Assembly (NCBI GenBank): GCA_026683435.1
Contig: GCA_026683435.1_4866.1
From: a phage
Length of the DNA stretch: 64,000 bases
Reading direction: 5' to 3' (one strand)
The translations under genes and the position numbers were made by a program. The first letter of the stretch is position 1. Every line of letters starts with the position of its first letter. The notes below the pieces were generated by a model. The model was given only the letters and a program-made list of their open reading frames with translations. It was not told the DNA's origin and made no database searches. This document shows, one piece after another, positions 394-59,451 of this stretch.

Positions 394-428
394 AAAAAGA
401 AAGCCTCTTCCCCGTGGGGAAGAGGGCA
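394..428 (-). terminator. rho-independent terminator after gene 472..2649
   Basis: Stem cctcttcccc / ggggaagagg with GTG loop; T-run on minus strand (plus-strand aaaaagaaag precedes the stem). Confidence 0.65.
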
Positions 429-471
429 TGGATTATCTTTAGGCTTTAAACCCGTCAAGTTCCTCGTTAAA

Positions 472-2649
472 TTACGATAACGGTATCGTTGGCCGCACCC
501 ACGGTTTAGGGGCAGATTTGGTATACGGATTACATTCCATCATTTTACCGAGATACGCATCGTAATACACGAAGCGATCGACGTAGAACTTCTCCACCGG
601 TGCACTACTGGTAGCCGATTTCACCCGGTTGCGTTCCACAGCGAGGCTAATCGCCCCGGTAGGTGCGGGTTTTAGCGTGAACATCACCGCGCGGTTGTAA
701 CGCCAAGTGTCGTGCACAATATCAAACTCCGATACACAGTGTGCCATGATACCAAACAATGTGGTGGCTGGTAAGTTGGCTACAGCATCGCCGTATGGTG
801 TTCCCACCAAACCGCCGGGTATGTTTTGCTTTTGGAACAGCGTACCTGAAATAATCGTACCTAAGAACTCCACAACTACAGGCTTGGTTGGGTCGGTGAC
901 TTTATCTATCCCATCCGCACTGGCCAATCGGTTGGCATCTAAATCTGCGAGGTAGTCGAGGAACTCTTGGTACTCGTTGGTGACATTCGGTTTCACCGTT
1001 CCGACGGATACCCAGTTGACGATACTTTTATTCCCACCGACGGCTTCGCCTGCCATCCCAGGGCGAGTCCATGACATCCCGTCTTCACGACCGTAGACAT
1101 AGATCGGCGAGCCGGTAGCCGGGGTGTTCCATTGCTCGAACGCTGTATATCGTCCCGGCTGGCCCCAATCCCCACCCGGACCGCCATAGTAGCGACTCTG
1201 GTAGCCGGTAAATTGTGCGACGACTAACTGAGTAGCACCGCCTTTGTCACGGGACCCAGCTAAGCCGTTACGGTTATTGGTGCCGCTGGGCACCACCGCG
1301 CCTGTCCCGAGTGGCGCACCACCAGCTCCACCGATCTTGGTGGTGCTAAACGCATAGTAGTCGCCCCCACCCCCACCTCCGGCGATGGTGCCGTAGTTTT
1401 CGATGGTGACTTTGCCACGGAAGGCATCGGTAATGTGGATTGCGTCAGCTCCGTCTGCTGATGTGTTCGCAGGCAGAGAATAGACCATACCCGAACCACC
1501 ACGACCAAGAATGGTTCCCCGGTTAACGAAGTTCCAAACCACCTCGCCAATTTGCGGCAATTCGTCGATAACGAACGTCGGTTTCAGGTTGCTGTCGCGA
1601 TAAACGAAAGCCCCCGCATCTACGGTCACGTTAACAAACAAACGCCCGCACGCCGCATGGTTGGTCAACGTCGTGGCCCAGTAGCTGTCCGAAACTTGCG
1701 ACGTAGTTGTGTAGTTCAGGTTAAGGGTTTGCTCGTTATCTTGATAGCGTGCCACATTCAACGTGGCACTGCCCATGACTTTGTACGAACCCTCCACGGG
1801 TGCCAATTGCACTTGTCTTGGCCACTCGCCTGTCAAGTTCTCTACAGGAGCAATTTCGTTTACATCAAAAACACTCCGAATGCCGAGTGTCTCGATGGCC
1901 AGAGCATCGTGCAGGCTACCGGTGAAATCATCCGGGACGTATGTGGTTTTGCCTGCATATGTCTCGAGTTTGTTACGTGAAAAGAACACATACTTCGTTC
2001 CAAACATCCCGCTCCCCGGTCTAGCGGTCAAAGCTACGACGCTGTTATACGCAGAGGTTTGGCCTATATCCTCCGGGGACATAGGGGAGCTGACATCGAC
2101 TTTATCAAGATCCACGATCCGTTTGGTTGCATTAGAGTAGAAGTTAATCCACTGCTGTTTATTCGCAGCCTTTAGCGTGAGAATGATGTTGGTAACAGTG
2201 TAGACGGTGTTGATATCCACGTCACCGTTTATCACATCTAGCGTTTGGCTGCCGTACCAGATAAGACTTGTCTGTTTCGTCTGGAACGTGATGCGCGCAG
2301 CATTGTTTGTCCAAGTGATAGGCAGGTCTTCAAAGTCGTCAGTTAAAAAGGTAATCCCTAGTAGAGTGTCTAAATGCGGCAACAGTTCGTGGATGGACGC
2401 ACAAGTGGGAATGGCATCCAACTTAACCTTGGCGAAATAATCAGCAATATTTTGCTTCGTGACTTGGGCCGTAATTTGACCGTAATTTGAATACCCCGGA
2501 CCCCCTGTCAGTGTGACGTCTAGGGTTTTTTCGTCACGATGCGCCACGGACACCAGGCGTACGTTAGCGGGGTCTACTGCTTTGGCGACCGCGTTTTTAC
2601 GGTTGAGCGACCGAATCACGGTCGCCACTAAATCAGGAGTGTAGGACAT
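472..2649 (-). CDS. N-module paralog family, 725 aa, glycine-rich; putative tail-fibre/virion protein
   Basis: ORF track 725 aa. N-terminal blocks (TLTGGPGYSNYGQIT...NIADYF; LLGITFLTDDF) shared with array paralogs; Gly tracts; C-terminal ...SAPKPWVRP resembles the end of the 2664..3983 product. Confidence 0.6.
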   Translation of the reverse strand: MSYTPDLVATVIRSLNRKNAVAKAVDPANVRLVSVAHRDEKTLDVTLTGGPGYSNYGQITAQVTKQNIADYFAKVKLDAIPTCASIHELLPHLDTLLGITFLTDDFEDLPITWTNNAARITFQTKQTSLIWYGSQTLDVINGDVDINTVYTVTNIILTLKAANKQQWINFYSNATKRIVDLDKVDVSSPMSPEDIGQTSAYNSVVALTARPGSGMFGTKYVFFSRNKLETYAGKTTYVPDDFTGSLHDALAIETLGIRSVFDVNEIAPVENLTGEWPRQVQLAPVEGSYKVMGSATLNVARYQDNEQTLNLNYTTTSQVSDSYWATTLTNHAACGRLFVNVTVDAGAFVYRDSNLKPTFVIDELPQIGEVVWNFVNRGTILGRGGSGMVYSLPANTSADGADAIHITDAFRGKVTIENYGTIAGGGGGGDYYAFSTTKIGGAGGAPLGTGAVVPSGTNNRNGLAGSRDKGGATQLVVAQFTGYQSRYYGGPGGDWGQPGRYTAFEQWNTPATGSPIYVYGREDGMSWTRPGMAGEAVGGNKSIVNWVSVGTVKPNVTNEYQEFLDYLADLDANRLASADGIDKVTDPTKPVVVEFLGTIISGTLFQKQNIPGGLVGTPYGDAVANLPATTLFGIMAHCVSEFDIVHDTWRYNRAVMFTLKPAPTGAISLAVERNRVKSATSSAPVEKFYVDRFVYYDAYLGKMMECNPYTKSAPKPWVRPTIPLS

Positions 2650-2663
2650 GGTGACACCTTAGT

Positions 2664-3983
2664 CTATAGCGGTGGATACCAAGGGACCGGGGCGGTTTTG
2701 CTATATGGACTGTAGACCATATAGCCGCCTTTGCTTGGGTCGTAATAGATGAAATAGTTACAGTAATTCGAGTAGAGGCTCGTCATTTGTTTGGATTGGT
2801 ATCCGTTACGGTATAGTCCCTGGTAAGTAGTAGCTGATGTCGTGGTGGTGTAAGCAGTGTGGTACAGTACCCGACGCCGGTTAGCAATACTTTCTTGGAA
2901 CATCTCTTCGGTCGGAAACGCGTGTTGCATCAGCCGTCGAATACTCCCGGTACAGTATCGAGTGCCATACGGGGAACCCGTTAAATCATCCGCCGTTTCA
3001 GGCGATTCTGCCCGAGTCAACACGTACTCGTTTTGATACAACGTGACGCTCATCGAATTTGGGCTGGTTTCCCGGAAACTCATGTAACGCGCATAACGTT
3101 CGACGTCCTCTTCCTGCGCCAAATAGGCCACGTTATTTTTCGGACCAAAGTGCAAGAAGAACGGACGACGGAGATTACCCATATCCTCAGGTGGCGTCAA
3201 CTTCACGCAGTAATTGTACTCCCCACGCATATCAGGGTCTAAGCCTGGGTTGTTATTGCGTGTAGCGACATACCCATAGAGGTCATACGGGTTATCAGTA
3301 GCAGCATTACCGATAGTGAACGGGATGCCCGACCATGCCGACAGCGCCGCGATGAACTGGGTCATGTACGAGTTACTGTTTAGTCGCAGCGGGGTACCCA
3401 TTGGAATATTGATTATCTGTTGGGTGTACATGCTCCAGTCGAGTCGATAGACCGTGCTGTAAACATCCATGGGTTCCCAAGCCCCGGTTTCGGTGGTGTG
3501 GTACAAGTCGGCAAAGCTGGGCTCTTCACGAATAAAGCTAATAGGAATGTGACCCGTGAATGCGGGGTTATCCGATTTAATCGCCACCGTCCGATCGCCC
3601 GTTGCCACAGTGATCATTGCAAACTGGCTGTCGGGATACGTTAAATCGTCAGCAGTAAGCACCAACCCACAAGCTGCGGAAATCCGGTCGATGATGTCGC
3701 GGTAGGACGTCGCCCGATAAGGTACTTTAACCGGTACGCTGACGCCTTTAAAATACTGCGAAAGGTTTAAGCGGTCGTAGTAGATGTCCATCTTACCGCT
3801 GTAACCACCACCCTGTAATCCGTTTACCACTATACGGCTGTTGCGGCCATCGCGCAAGGCATTGGTTAAAGGACCTTGTAATAACGCCACGTTTGTTGCG
3901 TTGAGTGGTTTCTTGAGCTGCGGGTTATCACGATTAATCTGATCCCAAACCAGCTGCATGACAGGTTTGTTATAGTTGATCAT
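2664..3983 (-). CDS. N-module paralog family (A-type), 439 aa; putative tail-fibre/receptor-binding-like protein
   Basis: N-terminus MINYNKPVMQLVWDQINRDNP...GRNSRIVVNGLQGGGYSGKMDIYYDRLNLSQYF...CGLVLTADDL matches the family module; ATG at 3983. Confidence 0.6.
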   Translation of the reverse strand: MINYNKPVMQLVWDQINRDNPQLKKPLNATNVALLQGPLTNALRDGRNSRIVVNGLQGGGYSGKMDIYYDRLNLSQYFKGVSVPVKVPYRATSYRDIIDRISAACGLVLTADDLTYPDSQFAMITVATGDRTVAIKSDNPAFTGHIPISFIREEPSFADLYHTTETGAWEPMDVYSTVYRLDWSMYTQQIINIPMGTPLRLNSNSYMTQFIAALSAWSGIPFTIGNAATDNPYDLYGYVATRNNNPGLDPDMRGEYNYCVKLTPPEDMGNLRRPFFLHFGPKNNVAYLAQEEDVERYARYMSFRETSPNSMSVTLYQNEYVLTRAESPETADDLTGSPYGTRYCTGSIRRLMQHAFPTEEMFQESIANRRRVLYHTAYTTTTSATTYQGLYRNGYQSKQMTSLYSNYCNYFIYYDPSKGGYMVYSPYSKTAPVPWYPPL

Positions 3984-3993
3984 TGCAACGTCC

Positions 3994-4030
3994 TAAAAAA
4001 AGAAAATAGGCCCTTCGGGGCCTATTTTTA
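3994..4030. terminator. hairpin terminator (TTCG loop) upstream of gene 2664..3983, A/T runs on both sides
   Basis: aataggccc-ttcg-gggcctatt flanked by aaaaaaagaaa and ttttt. Confidence 0.6.
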
Positions 4031-4034
4031 GCTG

Positions 4035-7968: not shown

Positions 7969-7981
7969 GGTATTTACTCCA

Positions 7982-11352: not shown

Positions 11353-11382
11353 CCAAAAGAGGGGGGGCTCCGAAGAGCCCCT
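11353..11382 (-). terminator. hairpin terminator after gene 11387..12214
   Basis: ggggctc-cgaa-gagcccc, G7 run in 5' arm; T-rich on minus strand. Confidence 0.55.
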
Positions 11383-11386: not shown

Positions 11387-12214
11387 TTAGCTGTTATAGT
11401 GGTAGTACGCCACGCCTTTCACGCCTTCCTCATCGATACCCGTTTGGACAACCACGCGGTCGTACGATTTGTTAGCGAACTGAGCGGTGGATGTCGGCAC
11501 ATCCTGAACGGTGTTACTGTTCAGTGGCCCCGCGTAGTTCGGAATACCCAGGTCATCCAACACCTTACGCAAACCAGCCCACTGCGGTAGGCCAGAAGCA
11601 TCTACTGTCAGTAGGTTTTTATACGCGGTAAAGTCAATACCGTACGTCAACAAATCAATACACTTCTTACCGAGAGACGGTGAAATAGGCTCTTGAATCG
11701 CATTCAAGACATCCGATTTCACCGAAGTGTCTAGTACCGGTAAACCACGGTTATAACGCAACGTCGCAGAACCGATATAAGCCGGAGATGTCGATAGCGC
11801 TACGATGTTCTGTGTATTGGTGTAATTTGGGGTATTGGGACCCGCCAGTGGGAGGTTATAGATATCGATTGCAGAGAAGTTTACTCCGTAAGTATCCAAG
11901 AGCACCGAAAAGGCTGAGTGGAGGTTGGGAGCGTCAAACGTGACGAACTGCGCCTGGACAGAAGGACCCCACGGCAATAACCGCGCTAAGTTCACACGGT
12001 CGTAGTAAACGGTGATTGCGTCTCGAAATCCAGAACCCTGAATACCGCGCAAGCGTGCCGACGTATTGCGGTTGTTGGAAGCTGCATTAACGGGAACCTG
12101 TGTCACTTTCTCCACGTAGCAGTTTGCCGGCGACGCTTTAATAGGTAGGTTTGGGTTATCCCGGTTAATGAGGTCAAAGACCAACTCGTTTGACGGCTTA
12201 GCATAGTTGATCAT
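11387..12214 (-). CDS. N-module paralog, 275 aa, C-terminal YYHYNS (C-type end motif)
   Basis: Track start 12217 is TTG; ATG at 12214, 4 nt after upstream stop. MINYAKPSNELVFDLINRDNP...NNRNTSARLRGIQGSGFRDAITVYYDRVNLARLL. Confidence 0.6.
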   Translation of the reverse strand: MINYAKPSNELVFDLINRDNPNLPIKASPANCYVEKVTQVPVNAASNNRNTSARLRGIQGSGFRDAITVYYDRVNLARLLPWGPSVQAQFVTFDAPNLHSAFSVLLDTYGVNFSAIDIYNLPLAGPNTPNYTNTQNIVALSTSPAYIGSATLRYNRGLPVLDTSVKSDVLNAIQEPISPSLGKKCIDLLTYGIDFTAYKNLLTVDASGLPQWAGLRKVLDDLGIPNYAGPLNSNTVQDVPTSTAQFANKSYDRVVVQTGIDEEGVKGVAYYHYNS

Positions 12215-12217
12215 CAA

Positions 12218-13970: not shown

Positions 13971-14012
13971 CAAAAAAGAAAGGAGTAGCCAGGAGGAGGA
14001 TTTCCTCCTCCC
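13971..14012 (-). terminator. hairpin terminator after gene 14025..14936
   Basis: ggaggagg-attt-cctcctcc; minus-strand T-run (plus caaaaaagaaagg). Confidence 0.6.
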
Positions 14013-17565: not shown

Positions 17566-17618
17566 ACAAAAAAAGAAAAGGAAACAAAAAAGAAGGGGAG
17601 CCGAAGCTCCCTTTTCTT
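17566..17618. terminator. hairpin terminator after gene 17643..17861; T-run also on plus side
   Basis: gggagc-cgaa-gctccc preceded by long A-rich tract and followed by ttttcttc. Confidence 0.6.
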
Positions 17619-18370: not shown

Positions 18371-18450
18371 TTAAAACTCCTTAAGATAATGGTCGATTAG
18401 ATAAGAGTTAATGGTTAACTCTCACCTAAGTAATATATATCTGAAAATAA
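18371..18450 (-). repeat. duplicated promoter-leader unit (copy 1 of 2; partner 37126..37205)
   Basis: About 80% identity by eye with small indels; both contain the core motif, a stem-loop (agagttaa...ttaactct) and an AAGGAG SD. Confidence 0.6.
18424..18448 (-). promoter_or_regulatory. conserved quasi-palindromic promoter/operator-like element, copy 1
   Basis: Plus-strand cacctaagtaatatatatctgaaaa; coding-strand core AGATATATATTACTTAGG contains a -10-like TATATT. Confidence 0.5.
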
Positions 18451-18465: not shown

Positions 18466-18504
18466 ACAAAAAAAGAAGAAACCCTACTCCCGAAGGAGTA
18501 GGGT
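18466..18504 (-). terminator. hairpin terminator after gene 18541..18969
   Basis: ccctactcc-cgaa-ggagtaggg preceded (plus) by aaaaaaagaagaa. Confidence 0.7.
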
Positions 18505-18540: not shown

Positions 18541-18969
18541 CTAGTTGATGTGGAGTAGAGTGTCCTTCAACGCCTTCTGCTTTTCGTACGACTGACGACA
18601 CAAGGAAGTCAGCGTCGAATACGCCGTGCCGGTACGCACCGGTAATTCGCCACCCGCTTCGGTGGGTTCTGTACGAACAAAAGACCCTTCTTCAAACGGC
18701 GGCGCTGCGTGTGGGAAGTTCTTTTTCATGTATCGCTTATACCAGCCGGCTACAACACGGATAACTTTTGGCATCTGAGATCGTCGGTCACGTACTTTCT
18801 TCCCGTGCATCTGATTCATCTCGGAAGACATGCATAGCGAGGTGTACTGACTGAATCCGTCACTGACCCACTTACCGTCCTGGACCAGTAATTTCTTACC
18901 AACTGCTACAGCGATTCTCGGAGAGAAAATGACCGCACCATCTTTACGTTTCTTAGGCTTAAGCATCAT
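18541..18969 (-). CDS. hypothetical protein (142 aa), basic N-terminus
   Basis: MMLKPKKRKDG...; N-terminus resembles that of the next gene (MLKPRKQKR). Confidence 0.6.
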   Translation of the reverse strand: MMLKPKKRKDGAVIFSPRIAVAVGKKLLVQDGKWVSDGFSQYTSLCMSSEMNQMHGKKVRDRRSQMPKVIRVVAGWYKRYMKKNFPHAAPPFEEGSFVRTEPTEAGGELPVRTGTAYSTLTSLCRQSYEKQKALKDTLLHIN

Positions 18970-22967: not shown

Positions 22968-22992
22968 ACTGAGATAATATCTATCTGAAATA
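22968..22992 (-). promoter_or_regulatory. promoter/operator-like element, copy 2
   Basis: Plus cactgagataatatctatctgaaat; leader stem ctctga...tcagag follows. Confidence 0.5.
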
Positions 22993-23031
22993 AAATAAAG
23001 GTTAGGTGGTACCTCGTAGAGGTACCACCTA
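22991..23031 (-). terminator. hairpin terminator after gene 23037..25196
   Basis: aggtggtacctc-gta-gaggtaccacct (12-bp stem) followed on minus strand by a T-rich run. Confidence 0.7.
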
Positions 23032-30194: not shown

Positions 30195-30199
30195 CCGAA

Positions 30200-36336: not shown

Positions 36337-36358
36337 GATATACTCCTTAAGGGTTATA

Positions 36359-37125: not shown

Positions 37126-37205
37126 TAGAATACTCCTTTAGATTAATAGTCGATTAGAGAGTTTAGTAGTAACTCTCACCTAAGTAATATATATCTGAAA
37201 TTTAG
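37126..37205 (-). repeat. duplicated promoter-leader unit (copy 2 of 2; partner 18371..18450)
   Basis: Shares core motif, stem-loop (gagagtt...aactctc) and SD with the 18.4-kb copy. Confidence 0.6.
37177..37201 (-). promoter_or_regulatory. promoter/operator-like element, copy 4
   Basis: Plus cacctaagtaatatatatctgaaa (identical core to copy 1). Confidence 0.5.
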
Positions 37206-37243: not shown

Positions 37244-37283
37244 TAAAAAAAGACAATACCCTCTTACCCGAAGGTAAGAGGGG
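37244..37283 (-). terminator. hairpin terminator after gene 37289..37912
   Basis: ccctcttacc-cgaa-ggtaagaggg preceded (plus) by aaaaaaagacaa. Confidence 0.7.
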
Positions 37284-37973: not shown

Positions 37974-38009
37974 AAGAAAAAAAATAATAGGCACTCCGAA
38001 GAGTGCCTA
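37974..38009 (-). terminator. hairpin terminator after gene 38016..38780
   Basis: aggcactc-cgaa-gagtgcct preceded (plus) by an A-run. Confidence 0.7.
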
Positions 38010-38015: not shown

Positions 38016-38780
38016 TTAGAAGTCAACTCGCGTTTTCGATTTTTCCTCAATGCCTTCTGGCCATGAATCAATCCACGCTTGCAGCACCGCAGCTACACGG
38101 GGCTCAGCTAAGAACCTCTTCAATAACGGCCATGACTGGAGAGGATATAAAAACTTCAACGAAACTTGACCTGGGTCAAACTCATTCCGAACAGTAAACG
38201 GTAAACGGAAATCATAAGTTACCTGAACAACTGGCTCACTGAAAGGCTGGCCAAAGAAACTCAGGTTCCGAGTTACCGAAAGGACATGCCCTGCAAACTC
38301 ACCCCGAATCAGTTCGCTGCTCTTAACGGAGACAAACGAATAACCGTCGGTGTTCGGCTTACGCAGTCGTTCGGTTTTCATCACGTTAGCGAAGAAGTTA
38401 TCAATCACTTCTTCGACCAATACGTAATTCAGACACTCCCCACGCAACGCCTCGAGATTGTGTTGAGACCATGCATCCCATAGCGCCGGTTTTCTGGCAA
38501 TCAGCTTAAAGAACAGACGTGCAGAAACCGCCCGGAGTTCGCCGAGCATTTTCTTGGTCAGTTCAGTTTGATCCCAACTGGGGGCACAAAAGATTGTCCT
38601 TCCGCCGGAACCTACTAAGGTGGCACCGGTCACGCTGTTAATCAGTTTGTGACTTAACATGTGCGGAATACCTTTTGCCGTCAGGTCATTTTCGTCATAC
38701 GTGAATACGTAGCGATACTGACCATCTGCGGTAGGTACGGAAAGCCATTCTTTGGTTGCTGCTTTATTGAGTTTTGACAT
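38016..38780 (-). CDS. hypothetical protein (254 aa)
   Basis: ORF track; own promoter-like element (copy 5) and terminator. Confidence 0.6.
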   Translation of the reverse strand: MSKLNKAATKEWLSVPTADGQYRYVFTYDENDLTAKGIPHMLSHKLINSVTGATLVGSGGRTIFCAPSWDQTELTKKMLGELRAVSARLFFKLIARKPALWDAWSQHNLEALRGECLNYVLVEEVIDNFFANVMKTERLRKPNTDGYSFVSVKSSELIRGEFAGHVLSVTRNLSFFGQPFSEPVVQVTYDFRLPFTVRNEFDPGQVSLKFLYPLQSWPLLKRFLAEPRVAAVLQAWIDSWPEGIEEKSKTRVDF

Positions 38781-38876: not shown

Positions 38877-38904
38877 TCCCTAAGATAACATCTATCCAAA
38901 AAAG
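38877..38904 (-). promoter_or_regulatory. promoter/operator-like element, copy 5
   Basis: Plus tccctaagataacatctatccaaaaaag. Confidence 0.45.
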
Positions 38905-38936
38905 AATAGAGTCGACCCACTCCCGAAGGAGTGGGT
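38898..38936 (-). terminator. hairpin terminator after gene 38942..39541
   Basis: cccactcc-cgaa-ggagtggg preceded (plus) by aaaaaagaatag. Confidence 0.7.
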
Positions 38937-38941: not shown

Positions 38942-39541
38942 TCACTGATGATCAACTGTCGGTTCAGACCACTCTGGGACTGGCGGAAGCTTAATATCAG
39001 CTGCATACTCTGAAGGTACTGCAAGTGTGGTAAAGCCTCGACATGCTAAATAGTGCTGCATTCGTGCTGCCTGGTTTGGTGTATCAGTAATCACCAAATG
39101 GGTCTTACGCATAAGTGCGAGTACCGCCTGTCCTTCTTGCGGTGTAGGTGTACGTGGATGCTTACTGATAATGCTCATTAACCAGTCACGTGCAATACCG
39201 CCTACATTACAACTGGCCTCACGCAAATCAACCACACCTTCTCCCTCACCGACCACCTGTTTCGTGGAGTTAGGATAAAAGCGATACGGTGCACGACGAC
39301 GCTTACGACGTACTTCTGAAATAGCACGCCCGAGTATCATCTGTGCATGTTTAACGCTACAGCCTTCCACCGGTCTACGCATGTTCGTTACTAAACAGGC
39401 AATCTCTAGTACCTTACCGATTTGATAACGACGCTTAAAGCCATGACGACTTATGTCTACGTATTCTGGAAGATTGCCGTTTTTATTGATGTTTGCAACC
39501 GTAATCAAAAACAGCGAATCGAGAATCATCTCAGACATCAC
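38942..39541 (-). CDS. hypothetical protein (199 aa)
   Basis: ORF track. Confidence 0.6.
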   Translation of the reverse strand: MMSEMILDSLFLITVANINKNGNLPEYVDISRHGFKRRYQIGKVLEIACLVTNMRRPVEGCSVKHAQMILGRAISEVRRKRRRAPYRFYPNSTKQVVGEGEGVVDLREASCNVGGIARDWLMSIISKHPRTPTPQEGQAVLALMRKTHLVITDTPNQAARMQHYLACRGFTTLAVPSEYAADIKLPPVPEWSEPTVDHQ

Positions 39542-43484: not shown

Positions 43485-43527
43485 GAAAAAAATAAATACC
43501 TACCCTCGCTAAACGGGCGAGGGTAGT
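43485..43527 (-). terminator. hairpin terminator after gene 43531..44148
   Basis: taccctcgc...gcgagggta preceded (plus) by aaaaaaataaat. Confidence 0.6.
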
Positions 43528-44195: not shown

Positions 44196-44231
44196 AAAAT
44201 AATAAACAGTATAGGGGCCGAAGCCCCTATA
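44196..44231 (-). terminator. hairpin terminator after gene 44240..44629
   Basis: ataggggc-cgaa-gcccctat preceded (plus) by aataataaacag. Confidence 0.65.
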
Positions 44232-44239
44232 CGCTGTGT

Positions 44240-51176: not shown

Positions 51177-53921
51177 ATGGAAGATATTAGTAAATTAACG
51201 GGCGACCCCGCGGTAGCTGCCATACTGCGTAAGTCCACGAGCCCGTCGGCTCAGCAGCAACGCGGTAAGCGTGAAGATGGCGGTGTTACACCAACCCGTA
51301 CAGAACTCACGGGCATTGCGAGTAGCCGCATTCGCACCGTTAAAAATGCCGAACGTATCTTTGATGCGCTCCCTGAGTTAGAGGTCATTGTTACCATCGC
51401 GACCTCCTCGCTCCTGTCCACAAAAGATTTGATTAACACCACGCTGATTTACGACAACGTGGCTGATATCCCGATCGACCTGCGTCAGCAGTTATTGGAA
51501 CCTGTGCGTGAATTCCATGACCACACGCGTCAGTTACCCAACAAACTGTATCAGTGGATTTACGATGCACTGAAATCCAAAGGCGCGAGCCCGGTGTTGC
51601 TGATTTCAGATACCGGATTCGATGAACTCTTCGGCTTAAAGCCGTCTGTTGCAACCGAATCGTTGCGCCGTAGCCAATCCGACTTCTTTGAACGTCAGTT
51701 GGGTATCCTGGGCAAGATTGGCGGTGAAAACAAACCGAAGGTTGGTGTAGAAAGTATTCTGGGTCGTGCACGTGGAGCTGACAAGCCCACCAAGCCACAA
51801 ACCATTAAACTTAACTTTGCAGCAGCCCCTAACAGTCCGTTTAAAGCAGACGGTATGTTAGCTTCCCTGGATATCGTTATCACCGACAACCCGCGTATTA
51901 CCCTGCTACCAGAGGCTTATCGCCGTGTGGCACAGGAGAATGCTCGCACCGGCCTGTTCGGTCAGTTAGAGCAGTACGCATATGAACAACCTTCTACGCC
52001 GACAGGTGCGTCAGCGTATAACGCTGACCAGTTCACAGACAGCGAACAAGAGAAGGCAAAACTCGGTTTAATCAACATCGGCGACCTCAACGAAGCGTAC
52101 CAGAAAACGCCTGAGCAAAAGCTTTACGGCGAAGTACCGAAGATGAGTTTCTCCGATGCCAACAAAATCGAATACACGGAACGATTACTGCCAGCAGAGT
52201 CCACACTCCCACTCGTTATCGGTGACGATGTTCGTAACCCCATAGGTTATCTGGCCATCGTTGACGAAATGGGTAACTTCATTAACTCGCGTTCCACACT
52301 TTACGGTGATGCGAACTTCATGAACTACCTGAACAACGACGGTATGGTGGATTCAACAATCAACCGTGCAAATCTGGGGATGGGCAACACAACCCGAATC
52401 ACACCAGACATTGCTAACCGCTTAACAGCGCGTTATGGTGAGATTGCTGAAGACCAGCTAACCAAAGCTCTGGGTGAGGCGTTGGGTGGTGCTGAGATTA
52501 GCATGACAGTAACCGAAACGTTCAGCCGTATCATGTTAGCACGCCATCTGGCAAAACGCCACACGCAGGTTATCTATATTCCTGCGGAAAACCTTTGCTA
52601 CTTCGCCACAGACTTTGATGAAGACGGCATCGGTGTGTCTATTACCGAACGTTCGTTCGTTATCTCTACTGTCCGTATGGCGCTGCTGTTCGCTACCATG
52701 AACTCTGCGGTGTTAAACTCTGCCCGTCACATGCAGTACGACATTGAGTTGGCACCAGACGACATGAACGGTCAGAAAACAATTGACCAGCTGAAAACAG
52801 ACATCATGAACTCCTATAACCGTCGTCAACCGATGTGGGGGGACATGAACGACACCTGGGCAATGACGACAAACGCAGGTATTGCGTTTAACGTTATTGG
52901 TAACGACTACTACGGTAGTACCAAAGTGTCTGTGTCGGATACTACGCCGGATTATAAATACCCGGATAAGGATTTCGACGAAGGTCTGTTACGTCGCACT
53001 TGTCACATCGCTGGCGTTGACCCCGACCTGGTAATGACCCCCGAGAACATCGAATTCGCTTCACAGATTTTCTCTAAATCGTTACTGGTCACCCAGCAGG
53101 TTGTTAAGAAGCAAGAGATTCTCTCTAAGCCGCTGACACGTTACGTAGTTAATGGGATGTTGGCCTCTCCGTCGTTGCAATCAGCGATGATTAAAATCAT
53201 TGCAGAGTACATCAACGCTAACGGTAATGGGATGACTACTGACCAGATTACGAAAAAGGTCTCTGAGTACCTGGCTGCGTTTATCAACGGTATGAAAGTA
53301 ACCTTACCACCGCCAGACACCTCTGCAGCAGCTTCGCAGATGGAGCTGTTCGATAAACGTACGGAGTTCTTTGAGAAGCTGGCTGATCTGGTTGTAACGG
53401 ATGACATTGCTGCGCAACTCCAGCAAGAAGGCATCACGATGGACCCGAACGATCTGAAGACGATGATCAAGTCCTTCTATACGCGCAACTGGCTGCGTAA
53501 ACAAGGCATTGAAACCGACTTCTTCGATCTGGTTTACGACGATGATTCTCGTCAGGACAACATCACCATGATGACTGATGAAGCGATGGCTGCTTCGAAA
53601 ACGCTGATTCAATTGGCGAAACGTTTTACAGGTCGTCTGGAAACGTTGGCGAAAAATGCTGACCTTGACCCTAACGAATCTGCTGGCGGATTCAGCGGTG
53701 GTTTTGATGCGGGCGGTGACACCGGTGGCGGCGAGGGAGATCTCGGTGGTGGAGGTGACGATGATTTAGACCTCGATTTCGATACGGATAACGGAACCGA
53801 CGGGGATAGTACAGGGGAAACGACTGAGTCGACCGAAACCACGGAAACAACTACCGAGGGAACGGAAGGCACAGAAGGTGGTGAAGGAACTACCGACGAC
53901 AACCCAGACAACGTCCTCTAA
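51177..53921 (+). CDS. 914-aa protein with acidic low-complexity C-terminal tail; candidate portal protein (speculative)
   Basis: ATG at 51177 with GGAG SD; C-terminus DLDLDFDTDNGTDGDSTGETTESTETTETTTEGTEGTEGGEGTTDDNPDNVL; one of only two plus-strand genes. Confidence 0.65.
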   Translation: MEDISKLTGDPAVAAILRKSTSPSAQQQRGKREDGGVTPTRTELTGIASSRIRTVKNAERIFDALPELEVIVTIATSSLLSTKDLINTTLIYDNVADIPIDLRQQLLEPVREFHDHTRQLPNKLYQWIYDALKSKGASPVLLISDTGFDELFGLKPSVATESLRRSQSDFFERQLGILGKIGGENKPKVGVESILGRARGADKPTKPQTIKLNFAAAPNSPFKADGMLASLDIVITDNPRITLLPEAYRRVAQENARTGLFGQLEQYAYEQPSTPTGASAYNADQFTDSEQEKAKLGLINIGDLNEAYQKTPEQKLYGEVPKMSFSDANKIEYTERLLPAESTLPLVIGDDVRNPIGYLAIVDEMGNFINSRSTLYGDANFMNYLNNDGMVDSTINRANLGMGNTTRITPDIANRLTARYGEIAEDQLTKALGEALGGAEISMTVTETFSRIMLARHLAKRHTQVIYIPAENLCYFATDFDEDGIGVSITERSFVISTVRMALLFATMNSAVLNSARHMQYDIELAPDDMNGQKTIDQLKTDIMNSYNRRQPMWGDMNDTWAMTTNAGIAFNVIGNDYYGSTKVSVSDTTPDYKYPDKDFDEGLLRRTCHIAGVDPDLVMTPENIEFASQIFSKSLLVTQQVVKKQEILSKPLTRYVVNGMLASPSLQSAMIKIIAEYINANGNGMTTDQITKKVSEYLAAFINGMKVTLPPPDTSAAASQMELFDKRTEFFEKLADLVVTDDIAAQLQQEGITMDPNDLKTMIKSFYTRNWLRKQGIETDFFDLVYDDDSRQDNITMMTDEAMAASKTLIQLAKRFTGRLETLAKNADLDPNESAGGFSGGFDAGGDTGGGEGDLGGGGDDDLDLDFDTDNGTDGDSTGETTESTETTETTTEGTEGTEGGEGTTDDNPDNVL

Positions 53922-53922: not shown

Positions 53923-53986
53923 CAAAAAAAAGAAAAAGAAATAAGGTTTACCTCTCCCTTCGGGGAGAGGTACCTTTTCTTTTTTA
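53923..53986. terminator. bidirectional hairpin terminator between convergent genes
   Basis: acctctccc-ttcg-gggagaggt flanked by an A-run upstream and ttttcttttttaat downstream. Confidence 0.75.
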
Positions 53987-54286
53987 ATCTTCTGTAGCAG
54001 CTTTGGGTTTATTAACCAGTTCGTCGAGCATGATACCAATCGCCAGAGGGTCGTTCTGGAAAGGTTCTAGCTTTTCCAATACCTTTGTATCCTTTGCTGC
54101 TTTTAACGCCTTCAGGAGGCCTTTACGGGCGTTATAGAAGATTTGCCAGCGACGTCCATGACTGATCGCTGTTTTGGCTTTGTGGAAGTCGGCTAAGAAA
54201 GCTTCAGTCGCTTTGTTTTCAGGTAACTCAAAGCGAAAACGCACACTACGCTCAAAATCCATATTGACAACAATGAACTTTACCAT
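53984..54286 (-). CDS. hypothetical protein (100 aa)
   Basis: ORF track. Confidence 0.6.
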   Translation of the reverse strand: MVKFIVVNMDFERSVRFRFELPENKATEAFLADFHKAKTAISHGRRWQIFYNARKGLLKALKAAKDTKVLEKLEPFQNDPLAIGIMLDELVNKPKAATED

Positions 54287-54610: not shown

Positions 54611-54646
54611 AATAAAAAATAATAATAGGAGACCCGAAGGTCTCCG
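54611..54646 (-). terminator. hairpin terminator after gene 54653..56323
   Basis: ggagacc-cgaa-ggtctcc preceded (plus) by aaaaaataataatag. Confidence 0.65.
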
Positions 54647-54652: not shown

Positions 54653-56323
54653 TTAGTACAACACTGGTGCAGTTTTCTCACCATTGCTCAGAAGCAGGTA
54701 GGTGCGCTGCGGCAGCTGCATTAACACAATTGCATGTGGCACGTTTTCCTGTACTGCTTCGTAGATAGACACAACCGGGTCTGCGGTATTGCCCAGAGAC
54801 GCTACCGTAACTACGTCGTGTTTATCAACAGAATGGTACATGCCTGGAATCACGATGGTGAACTGGCTCTGAATCAGGTTAACCACCTTGCCAGAATCGC
54901 TCAGCTTGATAGTCAGTTTGCGCAGAGAGTTCGCTACCATCAGGAACAGGTCACGGAACCAGTCTTCATATTCACTTACGCCGTTGTCGCCAGCGGTTGC
55001 AGTGAACAGATCTTTTACGAAGAAATCAATATCGCTGATCTTCCGTTCGAAATCGATAGCTTTGAACTTCGGCACATCTTTACCGCGCTTAGTGCCCAGC
55101 GACAGCGCGTTGTGTACCAGGAAAGTGATATTCGCCAGGTACGCATTAGCAAAGCGAGAAATCTCACTGATAACCACTTCTGCTTCACTGCTGTTCGCAA
55201 TCGCATATTCGTGCAGTTCTTTCGTGTTCTTACGCAGTTCATCGATCGTACGCTTCACCTTAGCCATGATAGTTTCAACATCTTCTACCAACGCCAAGTT
55301 GTCGAGATCGGATTTCAGTGCGTCGTGCTTAGCAACAAATTGTTTCATACGCTCGCACATATCAGTGTTAACACCGACCAGATACGCGCGATAACTATCC
55401 CGTGCACGCACAATCAGGTCAGCCCCGTCGTAGAAAACAACCTCTTCATTACCGTTAAAGATATCTTGCAACGGTGTAGCCCAATCACGCGTTTCCGCGT
55501 AAACAGATTGCTTAATGCGACTGTTAGCTTCCTTCGCTGGAATCGACATTTTAAGCTCGGGGGTTTTCAGCTCGTGAAGTGCGTAGTCTTCCATCAAATC
55601 AATCTCCTGCAGAATGTTGTTAATTGGGCCATTGATAGTGTCCTTCTCGGTTTCTTCTGTTGCGCCGAGTGGGGAAAGCACTGGGTTATTAACTGTAGCA
55701 TTAGACACCGGCATTGGTTGTACAGGCACCGGTGCTGGTTCAGGCCGGGGCTGTTGTGCTGGGGCTACTTGCGCCGGTTGCGGGTTCAGAATAGGATCAT
55801 TGACCAGGTTAAGACCTTCACCGCCAGCAATCACGGTTAGTGCCGCATCTGTGTTACCAATCTTAACACCACCAGATGGCGCAGAAGACATGGTCAGGCC
55901 ATCAGTAACACGAACACCGCCAGAACTGTTACCGCCCAGTAACCCACCTGCGTTGCTACCACCACCTAAACCACCACTGCCACCCAAACCGCCAGACTGC
56001 TGAGAACGAATTTCGGCAAGAATCTTACCGACTTGTTCCCAAGCATTAACCAGTTTGGTGTGACGATCGTCGTTGTACGCGTCGCCTGCGTTATGCACCT
56101 GCTGATAGGCAGCTGCTTTATACGCATCGACCGCATATGCGATAACCTGTGCTTCACTACCCCCTTTGGATGCTGCCCATGCCGCAACATACGTCGCAAT
56201 CTTTAACGCCTGATCTGGCGGAATGCTACGGCTGCGCATCACATTATTCAGCTGCGACAGTACCGCGTCCTGATCGAGGTGTTTAACGATGACGTTTTTG
56301 ATTTGTTCAACAGTAATGCTCAT
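54653..56323 (-). CDS. structural-type protein (556 aa) with Gly-rich linker
   Basis: QQSGGLGGSGGLGGGSNAGGLLGGNSSGG linker, then Pro/Ala/Gln-rich stretch. Confidence 0.7.
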   Translation of the reverse strand: MSITVEQIKNVIVKHLDQDAVLSQLNNVMRSRSIPPDQALKIATYVAAWAASKGGSEAQVIAYAVDAYKAAAYQQVHNAGDAYNDDRHTKLVNAWEQVGKILAEIRSQQSGGLGGSGGLGGGSNAGGLLGGNSSGGVRVTDGLTMSSAPSGGVKIGNTDAALTVIAGGEGLNLVNDPILNPQPAQVAPAQQPRPEPAPVPVQPMPVSNATVNNPVLSPLGATEETEKDTINGPINNILQEIDLMEDYALHELKTPELKMSIPAKEANSRIKQSVYAETRDWATPLQDIFNGNEEVVFYDGADLIVRARDSYRAYLVGVNTDMCERMKQFVAKHDALKSDLDNLALVEDVETIMAKVKRTIDELRKNTKELHEYAIANSSEAEVVISEISRFANAYLANITFLVHNALSLGTKRGKDVPKFKAIDFERKISDIDFFVKDLFTATAGDNGVSEYEDWFRDLFLMVANSLRKLTIKLSDSGKVVNLIQSQFTIVIPGMYHSVDKHDVVTVASLGNTADPVVSIYEAVQENVPHAIVLMQLPQRTYLLLSNGEKTAPVLY

Positions 56324-56354: not shown

Positions 56355-58133
56355 TTAGCGGCCGATTTTAGCAATGTCTTCTTCGGTCGGTCTGATGTAC
56401 GGGTCCAGTTTAGGATTCCGCATCATTACCAAACTTGGGTTGGTCTTCATGTACGGGTTGAGGATGTTTGCCTTAAACGGTGCCGACTTAGGAATATAGT
56501 AGACGTTACCGCATTCCAGATGCGACGCAGATGCGTGCTTAGTACGGTCGTTCAAGTTAACGGTCTTGCCTCCTTTCTTCGAACGCTTAGCATCGGTTTC
56601 GGTTTGACCGATGGCGTGCGTAGACACTGCCAATACCATTGATTCTGTAGAGGCATTGAAGAAACTGATACCGCCGTTGCTCGTAATGGTGCGCATCACC
56701 AGATTGAGCACGATCTGTTTGTTCAGTGCGTCTCGAATAGACTTCGCCGCTGTCTCTGGAGTCCGATGTTCCAGCTGCCCCAGTTTCCAACGTATTTTCG
56801 AGATCGTTGTGGTAAAGCCGCGTTGACCCAACAGTAAATAATCGGTTACCGTGAGACGTTTTCCGTACATAGACGGAATATCATCTTGTTTGGTAAGACG
56901 AGTACGCACCATCAGCTGCGTGGTGTACCAGAGGAAATCAAACATATCCAAATCATCAGGGATGGACGGATCGTTTGCCATCAGCTCACCACGGAAGGTG
57001 CTGTTGACATAGCGTTCGCATTCCTGGAAGTGGCTGTCCATACTGCGACTCAGTTCGATATCCGAGGGCTTCAGTCCGCGAATACTACGACCCAACACTT
57101 CGCGCCAGGAGGCTGCAGAGTTGAGGTTCGCAATATCTTCGTCCATTGCCATTTCGTTAATCTGTGTAAACAGCCCCGGCAGTGTTGGTGCACGACCGTT
57201 CTTACTGTTCTGTTTACCTGCGTAGTAGTGCGCTGCTTTGAAGAACGCAGCAGTCGCTACCAGCAACAGATGTTCATTCTGATCCCAACGCCCTGCATCG
57301 GTGTTAGGCATATCTTCACGTTTAACCAACAGTACGTACTGGATGGTCTTCGCGAGTTGTGGCTCACCGGACTGAATCACCACATACTTCGTTAAGTCCA
57401 CATCACGTACTTTAATCGCTGGCCAAATCGCCACATCAACACCCGCATAACGCTTCACAGCTTGTTTAAAGCCGTAGCGCCCGAAGAGCCAATACATCAA
57501 CGGCTTCTCATCGGTGTCGTGTCCAATCTGTCCGGTTGAGACAAACAGATTCGATGTACCTGGCAAGAACAGCTGCTCAGGGCGACCATTCACCAGAATC
57601 TTCGTTGGTTTCTTACAGAACTTGATAGACACCTTGCGGGTGAAGTCAAAGTTAATAAAGATACCACCGTGCTCACGACAAATACCAGGTTGGTGGATTA
57701 CAGGTGCTACGTGGTACGTTGTACCGTAGTAGTTCATTAAGCCGCCACGACGAATAAACGGCAGGCTCATTGGTCGTTGCACCGGGCGAGGATCGCCTGG
57801 AACTCGGAACGAGGCCATTACCATATACGTGTCAGTGGATGAGATGTTAATAATTGACCGGCCACGATTGTTTCGTGAATTGTTATCCGACTTCGATAAC
57901 TTAAAGATAAAAGCTTCAAACGGGGACATCTGACGGCAGCCTAACACCGTTAACCCTTCTGGTAATTTCGGGTTATCGATTTCATCATACGTCAACTCAC
58001 GACGTAGAATGGTTGCCACACGATCATGTATCCCGTCTTTAGCTTGTGTGTACCCAACTCCTTCTGCAATTGCACGATTAAAAGGCACTATTTCGCCTGC
58101 CTCTTTAATCTTCCTAATCGCATCTTTAAACAC
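56355..58133 (-). CDS. large hypothetical protein (592 aa)
   Basis: ORF track; no recognisable motif. Confidence 0.7.
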   Translation of the reverse strand: MFKDAIRKIKEAGEIVPFNRAIAEGVGYTQAKDGIHDRVATILRRELTYDEIDNPKLPEGLTVLGCRQMSPFEAFIFKLSKSDNNSRNNRGRSIINISSTDTYMVMASFRVPGDPRPVQRPMSLPFIRRGGLMNYYGTTYHVAPVIHQPGICREHGGIFINFDFTRKVSIKFCKKPTKILVNGRPEQLFLPGTSNLFVSTGQIGHDTDEKPLMYWLFGRYGFKQAVKRYAGVDVAIWPAIKVRDVDLTKYVVIQSGEPQLAKTIQYVLLVKREDMPNTDAGRWDQNEHLLLVATAAFFKAAHYYAGKQNSKNGRAPTLPGLFTQINEMAMDEDIANLNSAASWREVLGRSIRGLKPSDIELSRSMDSHFQECERYVNSTFRGELMANDPSIPDDLDMFDFLWYTTQLMVRTRLTKQDDIPSMYGKRLTVTDYLLLGQRGFTTTISKIRWKLGQLEHRTPETAAKSIRDALNKQIVLNLVMRTITSNGGISFFNASTESMVLAVSTHAIGQTETDAKRSKKGGKTVNLNDRTKHASASHLECGNVYYIPKSAPFKANILNPYMKTNPSLVMMRNPKLDPYIRPTEEDIAKIGR

Positions 58134-58144: not shown

Positions 58145-59149
58145 TCAGAGAATCATCCCAACGAGTGCTACCCCTGCAGCCAAATACGCGGGAATGGATT
58201 TCAAGAACTCCGAGCTATCTTTTCGCTGATAAGCTCGGGACTCGTATTGGTCTTTACGAACATCGGAACGCAACTTAAGCTCATTCGTCTGGATTGTGTT
58301 AAGGGTGTTAATCCTCTCCTTCTCTAGCGCCAGATTATTAAGTTGTGTACGATAATCGAGGTCTTGCCGATTCTTTTTCTCATCGAGATCTTGCAACTTG
58401 GCCTGATACGTGGCTTCCAGCTTCGCACGAACATCTCGCAACTCTGGAATGTTATCGAGCCACCGATAACGCCTCGCTTCATCTTCAGATGCAAACGCCC
58501 GGAACGGGGACATCGGGTCATCGAAAGAGTACATTATCATCTTACCCCCTTCGACGCACTCCGCACCACCGATTACCATGTAAATACCCTCGTCGTAATA
58601 CTTCGATCGAATCGGTTCGACTTCCAACATCGTTGTATAGAACCTCAGCCACTTTAAAGGTGCTGGGTCTTCGTACTTCTGTACAACTACCACGCCCAAG
58701 GCAAATTCTTTACGATCCCCTCCTGGCTTACCAATGACCTCAGAATCGAGTTTTACTGGTTGGGTAGAGAAAGCCATTCCTAGCTTCTTCAACACCACCA
58801 AGTCGCCTCGCATTAACGCACCGATATCATCAACTACATACATCAGCGTTGTTTCGCCGTTCGTAGTTAATTCCTTACATATCTGCGCATACTGCTTTGG
58901 CGAATGTGCGTCGCGCAAACCAGATAGGTTAGCACCGTTCGCAAACACCGTATAGGTCACGTAAATAACAATCCCAAATTCCGCCGCTGTGGTGGACGAC
59001 GGGGCTAAAACAAAATGCCCGCCACTGAGTTCAGTGACGTATATGGGAAACCCGGTATTATTTTCGTACGTGATAGTCTTCGACACGGCACCACGGTGCA
59101 TGGGCCGCTGGGTTAGCGTTGGCTGAACGTCTAAATCATAACGGTTCAT
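58145..59149 (-). CDS. coiled-coil protein with C-terminal transmembrane anchor (334 aa)
   Basis: Track start 59173 is TTG; ATG at 59149 (MNRYDL...); C-terminal IPAYLAAGVALVGMIL. Confidence 0.65.
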   Translation of the reverse strand: MNRYDLDVQPTLTQRPMHRGAVSKTITYENNTGFPIYVTELSGGHFVLAPSSTTAAEFGIVIYVTYTVFANGANLSGLRDAHSPKQYAQICKELTTNGETTLMYVVDDIGALMRGDLVVLKKLGMAFSTQPVKLDSEVIGKPGGDRKEFALGVVVVQKYEDPAPLKWLRFYTTMLEVEPIRSKYYDEGIYMVIGGAECVEGGKMIMYSFDDPMSPFRAFASEDEARRYRWLDNIPELRDVRAKLEATYQAKLQDLDEKKNRQDLDYRTQLNNLALEKERINTLNTIQTNELKLRSDVRKDQYESRAYQRKDSSEFLKSIPAYLAAGVALVGMIL

Positions 59150-59183
59150 TGAACATCCCAGTAATAATACCAAAAGAATTATT

Positions 59184-59209
59184 CACGTAGATAATATCTA
59201 TCTCAGATT
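59184..59209 (-). promoter_or_regulatory. promoter/operator-like element, copy 6
   Basis: Plus cacgtagataatatctatctcagatt, about 40 nt upstream of ATG 59149. Confidence 0.5.
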
Positions 59210-59262
59210 ACTTTGGGCACGGGTTCATACCCAGTGCCCTTAACGTAAAAAACTTTAGGGTA

Positions 59263-59346
59263 TCAAACGTGGTGACCGTTCGCCATAGAACCGCGCCCAT
59301 CAAACATCGGTGCAACTAGTCTTGATCTCTCTAAATTGACTTCCAT
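59263..59346 (-). CDS. possible 27-codon small ORF between two promoter-like elements
   Basis: ATG at 59346 with AAGGAG SD; MEVNLERSRLVAPMFDGRGSMANGHHV. Confidence 0.3.
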   Translation of the reverse strand: MEVNLERSRLVAPMFDGRGSMANGHHV

Positions 59347-59380
59347 TACTGTCTCCTTAAGTTAAAACCGAATGACTCTC

Positions 59381-59406
59381 TCCCTAAGATAATATCTATC
59401 TATAAA
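59381..59406 (-). promoter_or_regulatory. promoter/operator-like element, copy 7
   Basis: Plus tccctaagataatatctatctataaa, just downstream (minus sense) of the terminator. Confidence 0.5.
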
Positions 59407-59410
59407 TTTT

Positions 59411-59451
59411 TAGAAAAAAAGAAAAAGCTTACTCCCCGAAGGGAGTAAGCT
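59411..59451 (-). terminator. hairpin terminator after gene 59482..61782
   Basis: gcttactccc-cgaa-gggagtaagc preceded (plus) by aaaaaaagaaaaa. Confidence 0.75.

Follow-up and report, generated by a model that had tools for sequence, protein, structure and literature searches.

Intergenic Hairpins at Gene Ends

Do the short hairpins that recur between genes in this phage genome mark the points at which its transcripts end? We addressed the question for a 64,000-nt stretch of phage DNA (contig GCA_026683435.1_4866.1 of NCBI GenBank assembly GCA_026683435.1), called the window throughout. By megablast, its closest match is Escherichia phage vB_EcoM_Lh1B (Lh1B), with 97% identity over most of the length; SPN3US, Proteus phage 7, and the SPFM and SPLA Salmonella phages are 95–97% identical, and Salmonella phage SPAsTU and the Erwinia phages Asesino and phiEaH2 are farther relatives at 66–73% identity. 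By this similarity the window is assigned to the genus Seoulvirus, that is, to an SPN3US-like, phiKZ-related jumbo phage. Gene 59482..61782 encodes the major capsid protein (Pfam PhiKZ_MCP, E = 7.7e-226), nearly all genes lie on the minus strand, and non-coding sequence makes up at most 3.5 kb (~5.5%). The hairpins in that small fraction are likely, judging from the sequence features described below, to be factor-independent (intrinsic) transcription terminators for the phage's own multisubunit RNA polymerases, and they probably serve as 3' protective caps as well.

An exhaustive search for perfect hairpins, refined on both strands, found 20 strong intergenic hairpins between positions 404 and 59451, with free energies of −10.8 to −21.9 kcal/mol. 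A first-pass annotation had reported about 20, all of one design: an A-rich run on the plus strand, a stem of 8–12 bp, and a 4-nt loop that is CGAA in 12 cases and TTCG in two. The number stands, and each of the 20 does have an A-rich run on the low-coordinate side of the plus strand, which corresponds to a U-rich tail in minus-strand RNA. TTCG also occurs on the plus strand in two hairpins (4003 and 53949), as described. The design is otherwise looser than was proposed. Stems range from 6 to 13 bp, and a 4-nt loop holds for 16 of the 20, four having loops of 3, 7, or 8 nt (among them 23003, with 3 nt; 25756, with 8 nt; and 43500, with 7 nt). Plus-strand CGAA loops number 11, not 12, and are found at 11364, 17596, 18481, 30170, 35652, 37259, 37988, 38915, 44209, 54628, and 59426. 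The remaining plus-strand loops are CGTG at 404 and 31310, ATTT at 13992, and AGGA at 46312, which read in the minus sense as CACG (twice), AAAU, and UCCU.

All 11 CGAA hairpins have a C-G closing pair, so that minus-strand RNA would carry C(UUCG)G at each of them. With 53949, which has the same loop and closure in the plus sense, these make up the C(UUCG)G class; hairpin 4003 falls outside it because its sense reading is CGAA. The share of UUCG loops is unusually high (window, 55%; Lh1B genome, ~40%). In the sense strand, 18 of the 20 hairpins have 8–13 T in the 15 nt past the stem, and at 17 of the 20 the U-rich tail follows the stem directly, the tail being weak or distal at 11364, 13992, and 38915. 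The 5' arms taken together are C-rich and G-poor (79 C vs. 41 G), and in about one third of the stems the bias is reversed and the 5' arm is G-rich. Rfam at gathering thresholds gave no match anywhere in the window.

Perfect tetraloop hairpins (stem of at least 7 bp, 4-nt loop, at least four G-C pairs) numbered 20, as against 1.86 ± 1.47 (maximum 7) in 100 dinucleotide-preserving shuffles. All 20 strong hairpins lie within the ~5.5% of non-coding sequence, and 19 of the 27 gaps of at least 20 nt hold one; the other hairpin, 404, lies outside those 27 gaps, in non-coding sequence at coordinates lower than those of the first curated gene (472..2649). A chance origin was ruled out by the shuffle test and this confinement to non-coding sequence.

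The hairpins had been placed at minus-strand gene ends, and each is indeed 2–46 nt downstream of a minus-strand stop codon; on that strand, a terminator scan also picks out 18 of the 20. Two had been called bidirectional. The call stands for 53949–53972, which is functionally bidirectional because it lies between the convergent genes 51177..53921 (plus) and 53984..54286 (minus), and fails for 17596–17611, which has A/T runs on either side and two minus-strand neighbors, with no plus-strand gene to terminate. As for their description as regular punctuation, the hairpins are frequent but not periodic, with spacings of 0.7 to 7.6 kb. The 20 hairpins are as follows.

404..425, minus strand: CCUCUUCCC-CACG-GGGAAGAGG, then CUUUCUUUUU; 46 nt past the stop of 472..2649; −16.1 kcal/mol
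4003..4028, minus strand: 11-bp stem, loop CGAA in the gene's sense (inverted UUCG), then CUUUUUUU; loop of the Lh1B orthologue is UUCA
11364..11381, minus strand: C(UUCG)G, 7 bp; 5 nt past the stop of 11387..12217; weak U-tract CCCUCUUUUG
13992..14011, minus strand: GGAGGAGG-AAAU-CCUCCUCC, extendable to 12 bp; U-rich tail not adjacent, hence a weaker terminator candidate
17596..17611, minus strand: C(UUCG)G, 6–8 bp, then CUUCUUUUUU; 31 nt past a small minus-strand open reading frame
18481..18504, minus strand: C(UUCG)G, arms ACCCUACUCC/GGAGUAGGGU, then UUCUUCUUUUUU; 36 nt past the stop of 18541..18969
23003..23031, minus strand: 13 bp, 3-nt loop, then ACCUUUAUUUUAUUU; 5 nt past the stop of 23037..25196 (tail-associated protein)
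25756..25783, minus strand: 10 bp (17 bp if extended), 8-nt loop GAUCAUAU, then UUAUUUUUUU
30167..30196, minus strand: C(UUCG)G, 13 bp, then UUUUUUCUUUUUU; 3 nt past the stop of 30200..30544
31310..31335, minus strand: 11 bp with G-U pairs, loop CACG, then CCCUUUUUAUUUAC; 5 nt past the stop of 31341..31835; loop of the Asesino orthologue is UACG
35652..35677, minus strand: C(UUCG)G, 11 bp, then UUUUUGUCUUUUUAC; 2 nt past the stop of 35680..36414
37259..37282, minus strand: C(UUCG)G, arms CCCUCUUACC/GGUAAGAGGG, 3' of the thymidylate kinase gene; an identical hairpin at two other Lh1B sites
37988..38009, minus strand: C(UUCG)G, 9 bp, then UUAUUUUUUUUC; 6 nt past the stop of 38016..38780
38915..38936, minus strand: C(UUCG)G, 9 bp; 5 nt past the stop of 38942..39541; U-tract begins ~10 nt downstream and runs into a promoter-like motif
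43500..43526, minus strand: 10 bp, 7-nt loop, then GUAUUUAUUUUUUU; loop of the Asesino orthologue is UUCG
44209..44232, minus strand: C(UUCG)G, 10 bp; loop of the Asesino orthologue is GCAA
46312..46335, minus strand: 10 bp, loop UCCU, then CUUCUUAUUUUUUU; loop of the Asesino orthologue is AUGU
53949..53972, both strands: 10 bp, loop UUCG in the plus and CGAA in the minus sense, U-rich tails on either strand; kept in Asesino
54628..54645, minus strand: C(UUCG)G, 7 bp, then UAUUAUUAUUUUUU; 7 nt past the stop of 54653..56323
59426..59451, minus strand: C(UUCG)G, 11 bp, then UUUUCUUUUUUU; 30 nt past the stop of the major capsid gene 59482..61782

Loop and Tail Orientation

The arms of a palindrome are the same on both strands, and therefore only the loop and the tail can show which strand a hairpin belongs to. 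Read in the sense of the gene, the one-directional hairpins of the window have UUCG in 11 cases and CGAA in one (binomial p ~0.006). We assembled the complete 240-kb Lh1B genome and took a census of hairpins with a perfect stem and a T-rich tail (n = 44); the SPAsTU (L003) and phiEaH2 (L004) regions were left out of the scripted censuses. Among the one-directional hairpins of Lh1B, the loop read in the direction of the upstream gene is UUCG in 15 and CGAA in one (two-sided binomial p ~5e-4).

Genes on the opposite strand follow the same rule. The plus-strand gene 51177..53921 has UUCG in its own sense after the stop, and the rare opposite-strand genes of Lh1B (such as the helicase gene and the counterpart of 51177..53921, a structural gene) have a UUCG hairpin in their own sense. 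At convergent gene junctions in Lh1B, a strong hairpin is present at 13 of 17, often with T-runs on either side. Placement after the stop codon and the orientation of loop and tail thus all match the strand of the upstream gene. This asymmetry argues for selection on the transcript and against operators, cruciforms, and REP-like repeats; it points to selection acting on RNA, not DNA.

Conservation at Orthologous Junctions

Because the hairpins had been preselected as perfectly paired, covariation statistics would have been circular, and we used a synteny-defined junction test instead. Each window gene with an alignable orthologue in Asesino, a phage that has its gene order in common with the window at a nucleotide identity of only ~66%, was scored in each genome for the presence or absence of a perfect hairpin after the stop codon. 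The resulting table of window against Asesino is [[8,3],[0,31]] (Fisher p = 1.4e-6). Of the three apparent misses, one is the thymidylate kinase gene, which is followed by an imperfect stem, and two are mapping problems (an unaligned gene C-terminus and an extra small gene).

At most conserved sites the stem sequence differs between the two phages, and the loop is often still UUCG. For example, UAGGCACUC-UUCG-GAGUGCCUA in the window corresponds to AGGAGACC-UUCG-GGUCUCCU in Asesino, and GUAUAGGGGC-UUCG-GCCCCUAUAC to CAGGGGG-GCAA-CCCCCUG. Other loops at orthologous sites of relatives are GCAA, AUGU, UCCU, or 6–7 nt long. Position and structure are kept as the sequence turns over, which is the signature expected of a functional RNA hairpin.

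Hairpin 25756–25783 behaves differently. Its sequence, including the 8-nt loop, is kept in Asesino (GAUCUUAU, L002 10419–10448) despite the ~66% genome identity, and the other hairpins are not kept in this way. Its counterpart in the Lh1B record is at 107995–108022. A GATC site is present in the DNA of the loop, and ~8 nt separate the end of the hairpin from the next gene. This hairpin may have a role beyond plain termination.

Proposed Termination by Phage RNA Polymerases

Phages of this family have a virion polymerase and a non-virion multisubunit polymerase (PMC7598289, PMC5312081), and transcription in the family of SPN3US and Asesino is described as wholly independent of the host (PMC13282480, PMC7598289). 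Given this reported independence, reliance on self-sufficient terminators is a reasonable inference. SPN3US and Asesino are also listed among the phages shown to build a phage nucleus (PMC13282480). Within the window, gene 56355..58133 was not recognized by Pfam as a polymerase subunit, a label that comes only from the annotation of its Asesino orthologue.

Termination might proceed as follows. The virion polymerase would be served early in infection and the non-virion polymerase later. As either leaves a minus-strand gene or block of genes, the nascent RNA would fold, a few nucleotides past the stop codon, into a G+C-rich stem of 7–13 bp, for which the exceptionally stable and fast-folding C(UUCG)G tetraloop would be the nucleus in 11 of the 20 cases. 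The U-rich stretch that follows would leave a weak rU:dA hybrid, from which the transcript could be released, and the same hairpin would then shield the mRNA 3' end from 3'-to-5' exonucleases. We infer all three elements of this scheme: the transcript ends at the hairpins, the polymerase involved, and the stabilizing role. With the promoter-like motifs described below, a terminator-then-promoter layout would cut the window into about 20 units of ~3 kb, with three to four genes each.

The first-pass annotation had proposed short transcription units ending at terminators, and the indirect evidence fits this well: position, orientation, conservation, convergent junctions, downstream motifs, and the transcript maps of phiKZ and 201phi2-1 all agree with it. 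Its further suggestion, a preference for a shared processing or termination factor, was not supported, as UUCG is intrinsically stable, orthologous loops vary, and stems mostly differ between sites. Among known tetraloops C(UUCG)G is the most stable, and it has no known protein partner (PMC4371310), so that the preference for UUCG needs no dedicated factor.

Several points weigh against the terminator reading. A good adjacent U-tract is missing at three hairpins (11364, 13992, and 38915), and many other U-tracts are broken by C or G near the stem, which would weaken a classical terminator of the Escherichia coli type. The T-rich stretch might in part belong to downstream promoters, given the TTAC(G/A) pattern found after six hairpins. 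A purely thermodynamic model would not predict that 10-bp stems recur unchanged at sites without homology. Finally, the termination behavior of non-canonical jumbo-phage polymerases is without biochemical characterization (PMC7598289), and our literature searches turned up no RNA 3'-end data for Seoulvirus or Erskinevirus and, for the SPN3US-like and Erwinia jumbo phages, no published terminators or transcript maps.

We consider it unlikely that the hairpins are instead mainly 3'-end stabilizers or processing barriers, with polymerase reading through, host 3'-to-5' exonucleases or an endonuclease trimming the RNA back to the hairpin, and mRNA half-life set by the UUCG stem. Such a role is the one commonly considered for intergenic UUCG hairpins in phage T4. 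In its favor, C(UUCG)G is an unusually stable structure that was first seen in T4 mRNA (PMC4371310), and the three hairpins named above are without an adjacent U-tract; strand coupling and conservation would suit any RNA-level role equally. A pure stabilizer, however, would have no use for the immediate, sense-strand-only U-rich tail present at 17 of the 20 hairpins, nor does it account for the hairpins at 13 of the 17 convergent junctions, often with tails on either side. Promoter-like motifs directly downstream imply that new transcripts start there, and the analogous hairpins of phiKZ and 201phi2-1 have been mapped or tested as terminators. The two roles are in any case compatible, not exclusive.

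Recurring Stems and Inverted Loops

Some stems recur at unrelated places. The exact 10-bp stem ACCCTACTCC/GGAGTAGGGT is found in 17 stretches of about 11 IMG/VR jumbo-phage contigs; these sites are not homologous to one another, and 11 different loops occur among them. The stem CCCTCTTACC/GGTAAGAGGG is found at three Lh1B sites and two SPN3US sites, with identity stopping at the hairpin edges. Within the window, recurring 10-bp stems are those of 18481–18504 (ACCCUACUCC...) and 37259–37282 (CCCUCUUACC...), the other copies being at loci L011–L027 and L031–L034. Identical stems thus occupy unrelated junctions both within and across Seoulvirus, Erskinevirus, and uncultured relatives, and their loops vary and are sometimes inverted. 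Hairpin 18481–18504 has UUCG in the window and CGAA in Lh1B (L001 1642–1665), hairpin 4003–4028 has CGAA in the window and UUCA in Lh1B (record ~130585–130610), and two IMG/VR orthologues (L019 and L023) have UCCG and CGGA. The same stems with reverse-complemented loops indicate recurrent loop inversion within the palindrome.

Such recurrence makes it conceivable, though we think it doubtful, that the terminators form a family in which the stem sequence itself is maintained or copied and are not independent thermodynamic solutions. Short-patch copying or template switching could spread terminators, or cassettes of terminator and promoter, in the way of the PeSL elements described below; alternatively, the non-canonical phage polymerase or a phage factor could read the stem sequence. 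If the family reading is true, loop inversion followed by re-selection of the sense UUCG would be its visible trace.

The recurring stems bear also on the factor-dependent elements raised by the first-pass annotation, in which stem or loop would be recognized by an RNA-binding protein that the phage encodes, such as a nuclease or a factor for termination or antitermination. We regard these as less probable still than simple stabilizers. A reader of the stem would explain why ACCCTACTCC/GGAGTAGGGT stays the same at non-homologous sites under 11 different loops and why CCCTCTTACC/GGTAAGAGGG stays the same at its three Lh1B and two SPN3US sites between unrelated flanks, and the C bias of the 5' arms (79 C vs. 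41 G) points the same way. Yet stems and loops are quite different at orthologous sites, about one third of the stems have the opposite composition, the UUCG loop is without a known protein binder, and the analysis yielded no candidate factor. Eight 201phi2-1 terminators, moreover, work with the host polymerase too in a reporter assay.

Least probable of all, and very improbable, are palindromes that act as DNA (REP- or MITE-like repeats, sites of cruciform formation or recombination, or operators for a DNA-binding protein that is dimeric). In their favor, the hairpins are inverted repeats with perfect pairing, some stems exist in several copies, hairpins adjoin two of the mosaic breakpoints that separate the window from Lh1B, and loops inverted between close relatives imply that the palindromes do recombine or switch template as DNA. 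A DNA palindrome has no strand, however, and this explanation is largely refuted by loops (15 to 1 in Lh1B) and T-tails that match the strand of the upstream gene. Also against it are the confinement to gene 3' ends, stems that differ at most sites and between orthologous sites, and the absence of terminal repeats and target-site duplications. REP/MITE-like repeated palindromes in particular were rejected on the grounds that most stems are unique, loops and tails are strand-coupled, and there are no Rfam matches.

Comparison with Known Systems

Conserved intrinsic terminators have been described for phiKZ and 201phi2-1 (Putzeys et al., 2024; PMC10914365, PMC11512511). In phiKZ, ONT-cappable-seq located 133 termination sites, 61 of them with the common motif BCCYCCCCHWWDGGGRRGGBYTTAT (PMC10914365); in 201phi2-1, 132 sites were mapped, and all eight terminators tested were strong in a Pseudomonas chlororaphis reporter assay (PMC11512511). 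The window belongs to the same phiKZ-related lineage with two multisubunit RNA polymerases, in which a nucleus is reported for phiKZ, 201phi2-1, SPN3US, and Asesino, and its gene ends likewise have many stereotyped hairpins, G+C-rich and with a T-rich tail, in comparable number (about one per 3 kb). As in phiKZ, the 5' arm is C-rich and the 3' arm G-rich, and there are bidirectional examples at convergent genes. Unlike the A/T-rich loops of phiKZ, however, those of the window are mostly UUCG, and the stems are longer and more varied. A search of both strands for the phiKZ motif, also with its core relaxed, gave no match in the window or in the complete Lh1B genome. The phiKZ and 201phi2-1 terminators are supported by mapped 3' ends; those of the window are predicted from sequence.

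Intergenic C(UUCG)G hairpins in T4 mRNA were described by Tuerk et al. (1988, as recounted in PMC4371310). In both cases CUUCGG caps intergenic hairpins of phage mRNA and provides a thermodynamically exceptional, fast folding nucleus. T4 is transcribed by the host RNA polymerase, in contrast to the reported host independence of the lineage studied here, and the window hairpins differ further in having systematic U-tracts at conserved junctions. Enterobacterial Rho-independent terminators have the same architecture, in which a G+C-rich stem with a short loop, often of four nucleotides, lies just past the stop codon and is followed on its 3' side by a U-tract; what sets the window apart from them is a presumed split-subunit phage polymerase, U-tracts that are often broken, and the unusually high UUCG fraction.

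PeSL (promoter-early stem-loop) cassettes of T4-like phages consist of a terminator stem-loop followed by an early promoter and are repeated in the genome (PMC2839356, PMC4122927). The order of stem-loop and then early-promoter-like motif is found at 5 of our 20 hairpins, but the motif is not of the sigma-70 type and resembles instead the AT-rich motif of jumbo-phage virion polymerases. A PeSL-like role in modular shuffling is only hinted at, by the two breakpoints that adjoin hairpins.

Stereotyped jumbo-phage terminators are therefore already known from phiKZ and 201phi2-1, and the window is the same phenomenon with a different hairpin design; current understanding is not overturned. What the analysis provides is a first, purely computational transcription-unit map of a Seoulvirus segment, with about 20 putative terminators and 7 putative early-type promoters in 64 kb. 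Enterobacterial phiKZ-related phages would then punctuate their genomes as phiKZ does with another hairpin design, and terminator design would therefore shift between genera as positions stay fixed. The hairpins are candidates for compact, strong, insulated terminators in enterobacterial synthetic biology and possible test templates for termination by split-subunit phage polymerases.

Promoter-Like Motifs Downstream of Hairpins

Folding of every gap also revealed a conserved minus-strand motif of ~25 nt with the consensus TTTCAGATAGATATTATCTTAGGKGAG. Motifs resembling GATAGATATTATC occur in seven copies in the window, all on the minus strand and all intergenic, and 5 of the 20 hairpins have one ~20–65 nt downstream. 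Lh1B has ~19–20 copies on the sense strand, vs. three poor antisense matches. The seven copies, each an early-promoter-like motif, are as follows.

18430..18441, minus strand: GATATATATTAC, ~40 nt downstream of hairpin 18481
22974..22985, minus strand: GATAGATATTAT, ~18 nt downstream of hairpin 23003
30600..30611, minus strand: GATAGATGTTAT, upstream of gene 30200..30544
37184..37195, minus strand: GATATATATTAC, ~64 nt downstream of hairpin 37259
38885..38896, minus strand: GATAGATGTTAT, ~19 nt downstream of hairpin 38915; kept in Asesino
59191..59202, minus strand: GATAGATATTAT, a second motif in this region, just upstream of gene 58145..59173
59389..59400, minus strand: GATAGATATTAT, ~26 nt downstream of hairpin 59426

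The early-promoter consensus of phage AR9 is AAATATATATTAT-N6-G (PMC5312081), and an AT-rich early motif is said to precede early operons in every polymerase-encoding jumbo phage (PMC7598289). The resemblance to the AR9 consensus suggests that the GATAGATATTATC-like motif is an early promoter, putatively of the virion polymerase. Sigma-70-like promoter matches were not enriched (17–18 per 20 kb vs. 22–26 in shuffles), and with matches below the shuffle level nothing points to host sigma-70 promoters in this segment.

Past six hairpins the U-tract runs into TTAC(G/A), or T5-8 N0-4 TAC R, and the orthologous Asesino hairpins do likewise. The six minus-strand occurrences are at 31295–31306, 35636–35651, 37242–37251, 37970–37984, 43480–43492, and 46292–46304. 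The pattern might represent another class of promoter or belong to the tail of the terminator; as a promoter call, a T-run with TTAC(G/A) was set aside, the pattern being too short. Small conserved stem-loops lie directly downstream of promoter-like motifs at 18400–18430, 37155–37184, and 30575–30595, examples being GUGAGAGUUA...UAACUCU and GGGAGAAGAUUGUUUUCUCCC, and these may be 5'-leader structures.

Mosaic Breakpoints and Other Features

Of the mosaic breakpoints that separate the window from Lh1B, those at 4053 and 23000 adjoin hairpins 4003 and 23003, respectively; the others adjoin none. Beside hairpin 4003, a 565-nt segment (4054–4618) is absent from Lh1B. It holds a 213-nt stretch that is 75% identical to 7757–7969 and looks like a decayed copy of the start of a paralogous gene. 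Two further segments, 23001–25619 and 29020–31075, have no nucleotide alignment to Lh1B, and the gene for the tail-associated protein, which lies within these unaligned segments, is 2160 nt long in the window and 3018 nt in Lh1B.

One further hairpin lies beyond the span of the first-pass annotation, in a region where Lh1B has stronger hairpins further downstream.

63905..63922, plus strand: 7-bp stem, loop UUAG, poor tail; 8 nt past the stop of the plus-strand helicase gene 62334..63896

The large divergent virion-protein genes 48982–51177 (minus) and 51177–53921 (plus) are separated by a gap of at most ~11 nt, so their promoters would have to lie inside coding sequence. Lastly, the genes at 2.6 to 17.4 kb form a paralogue family.

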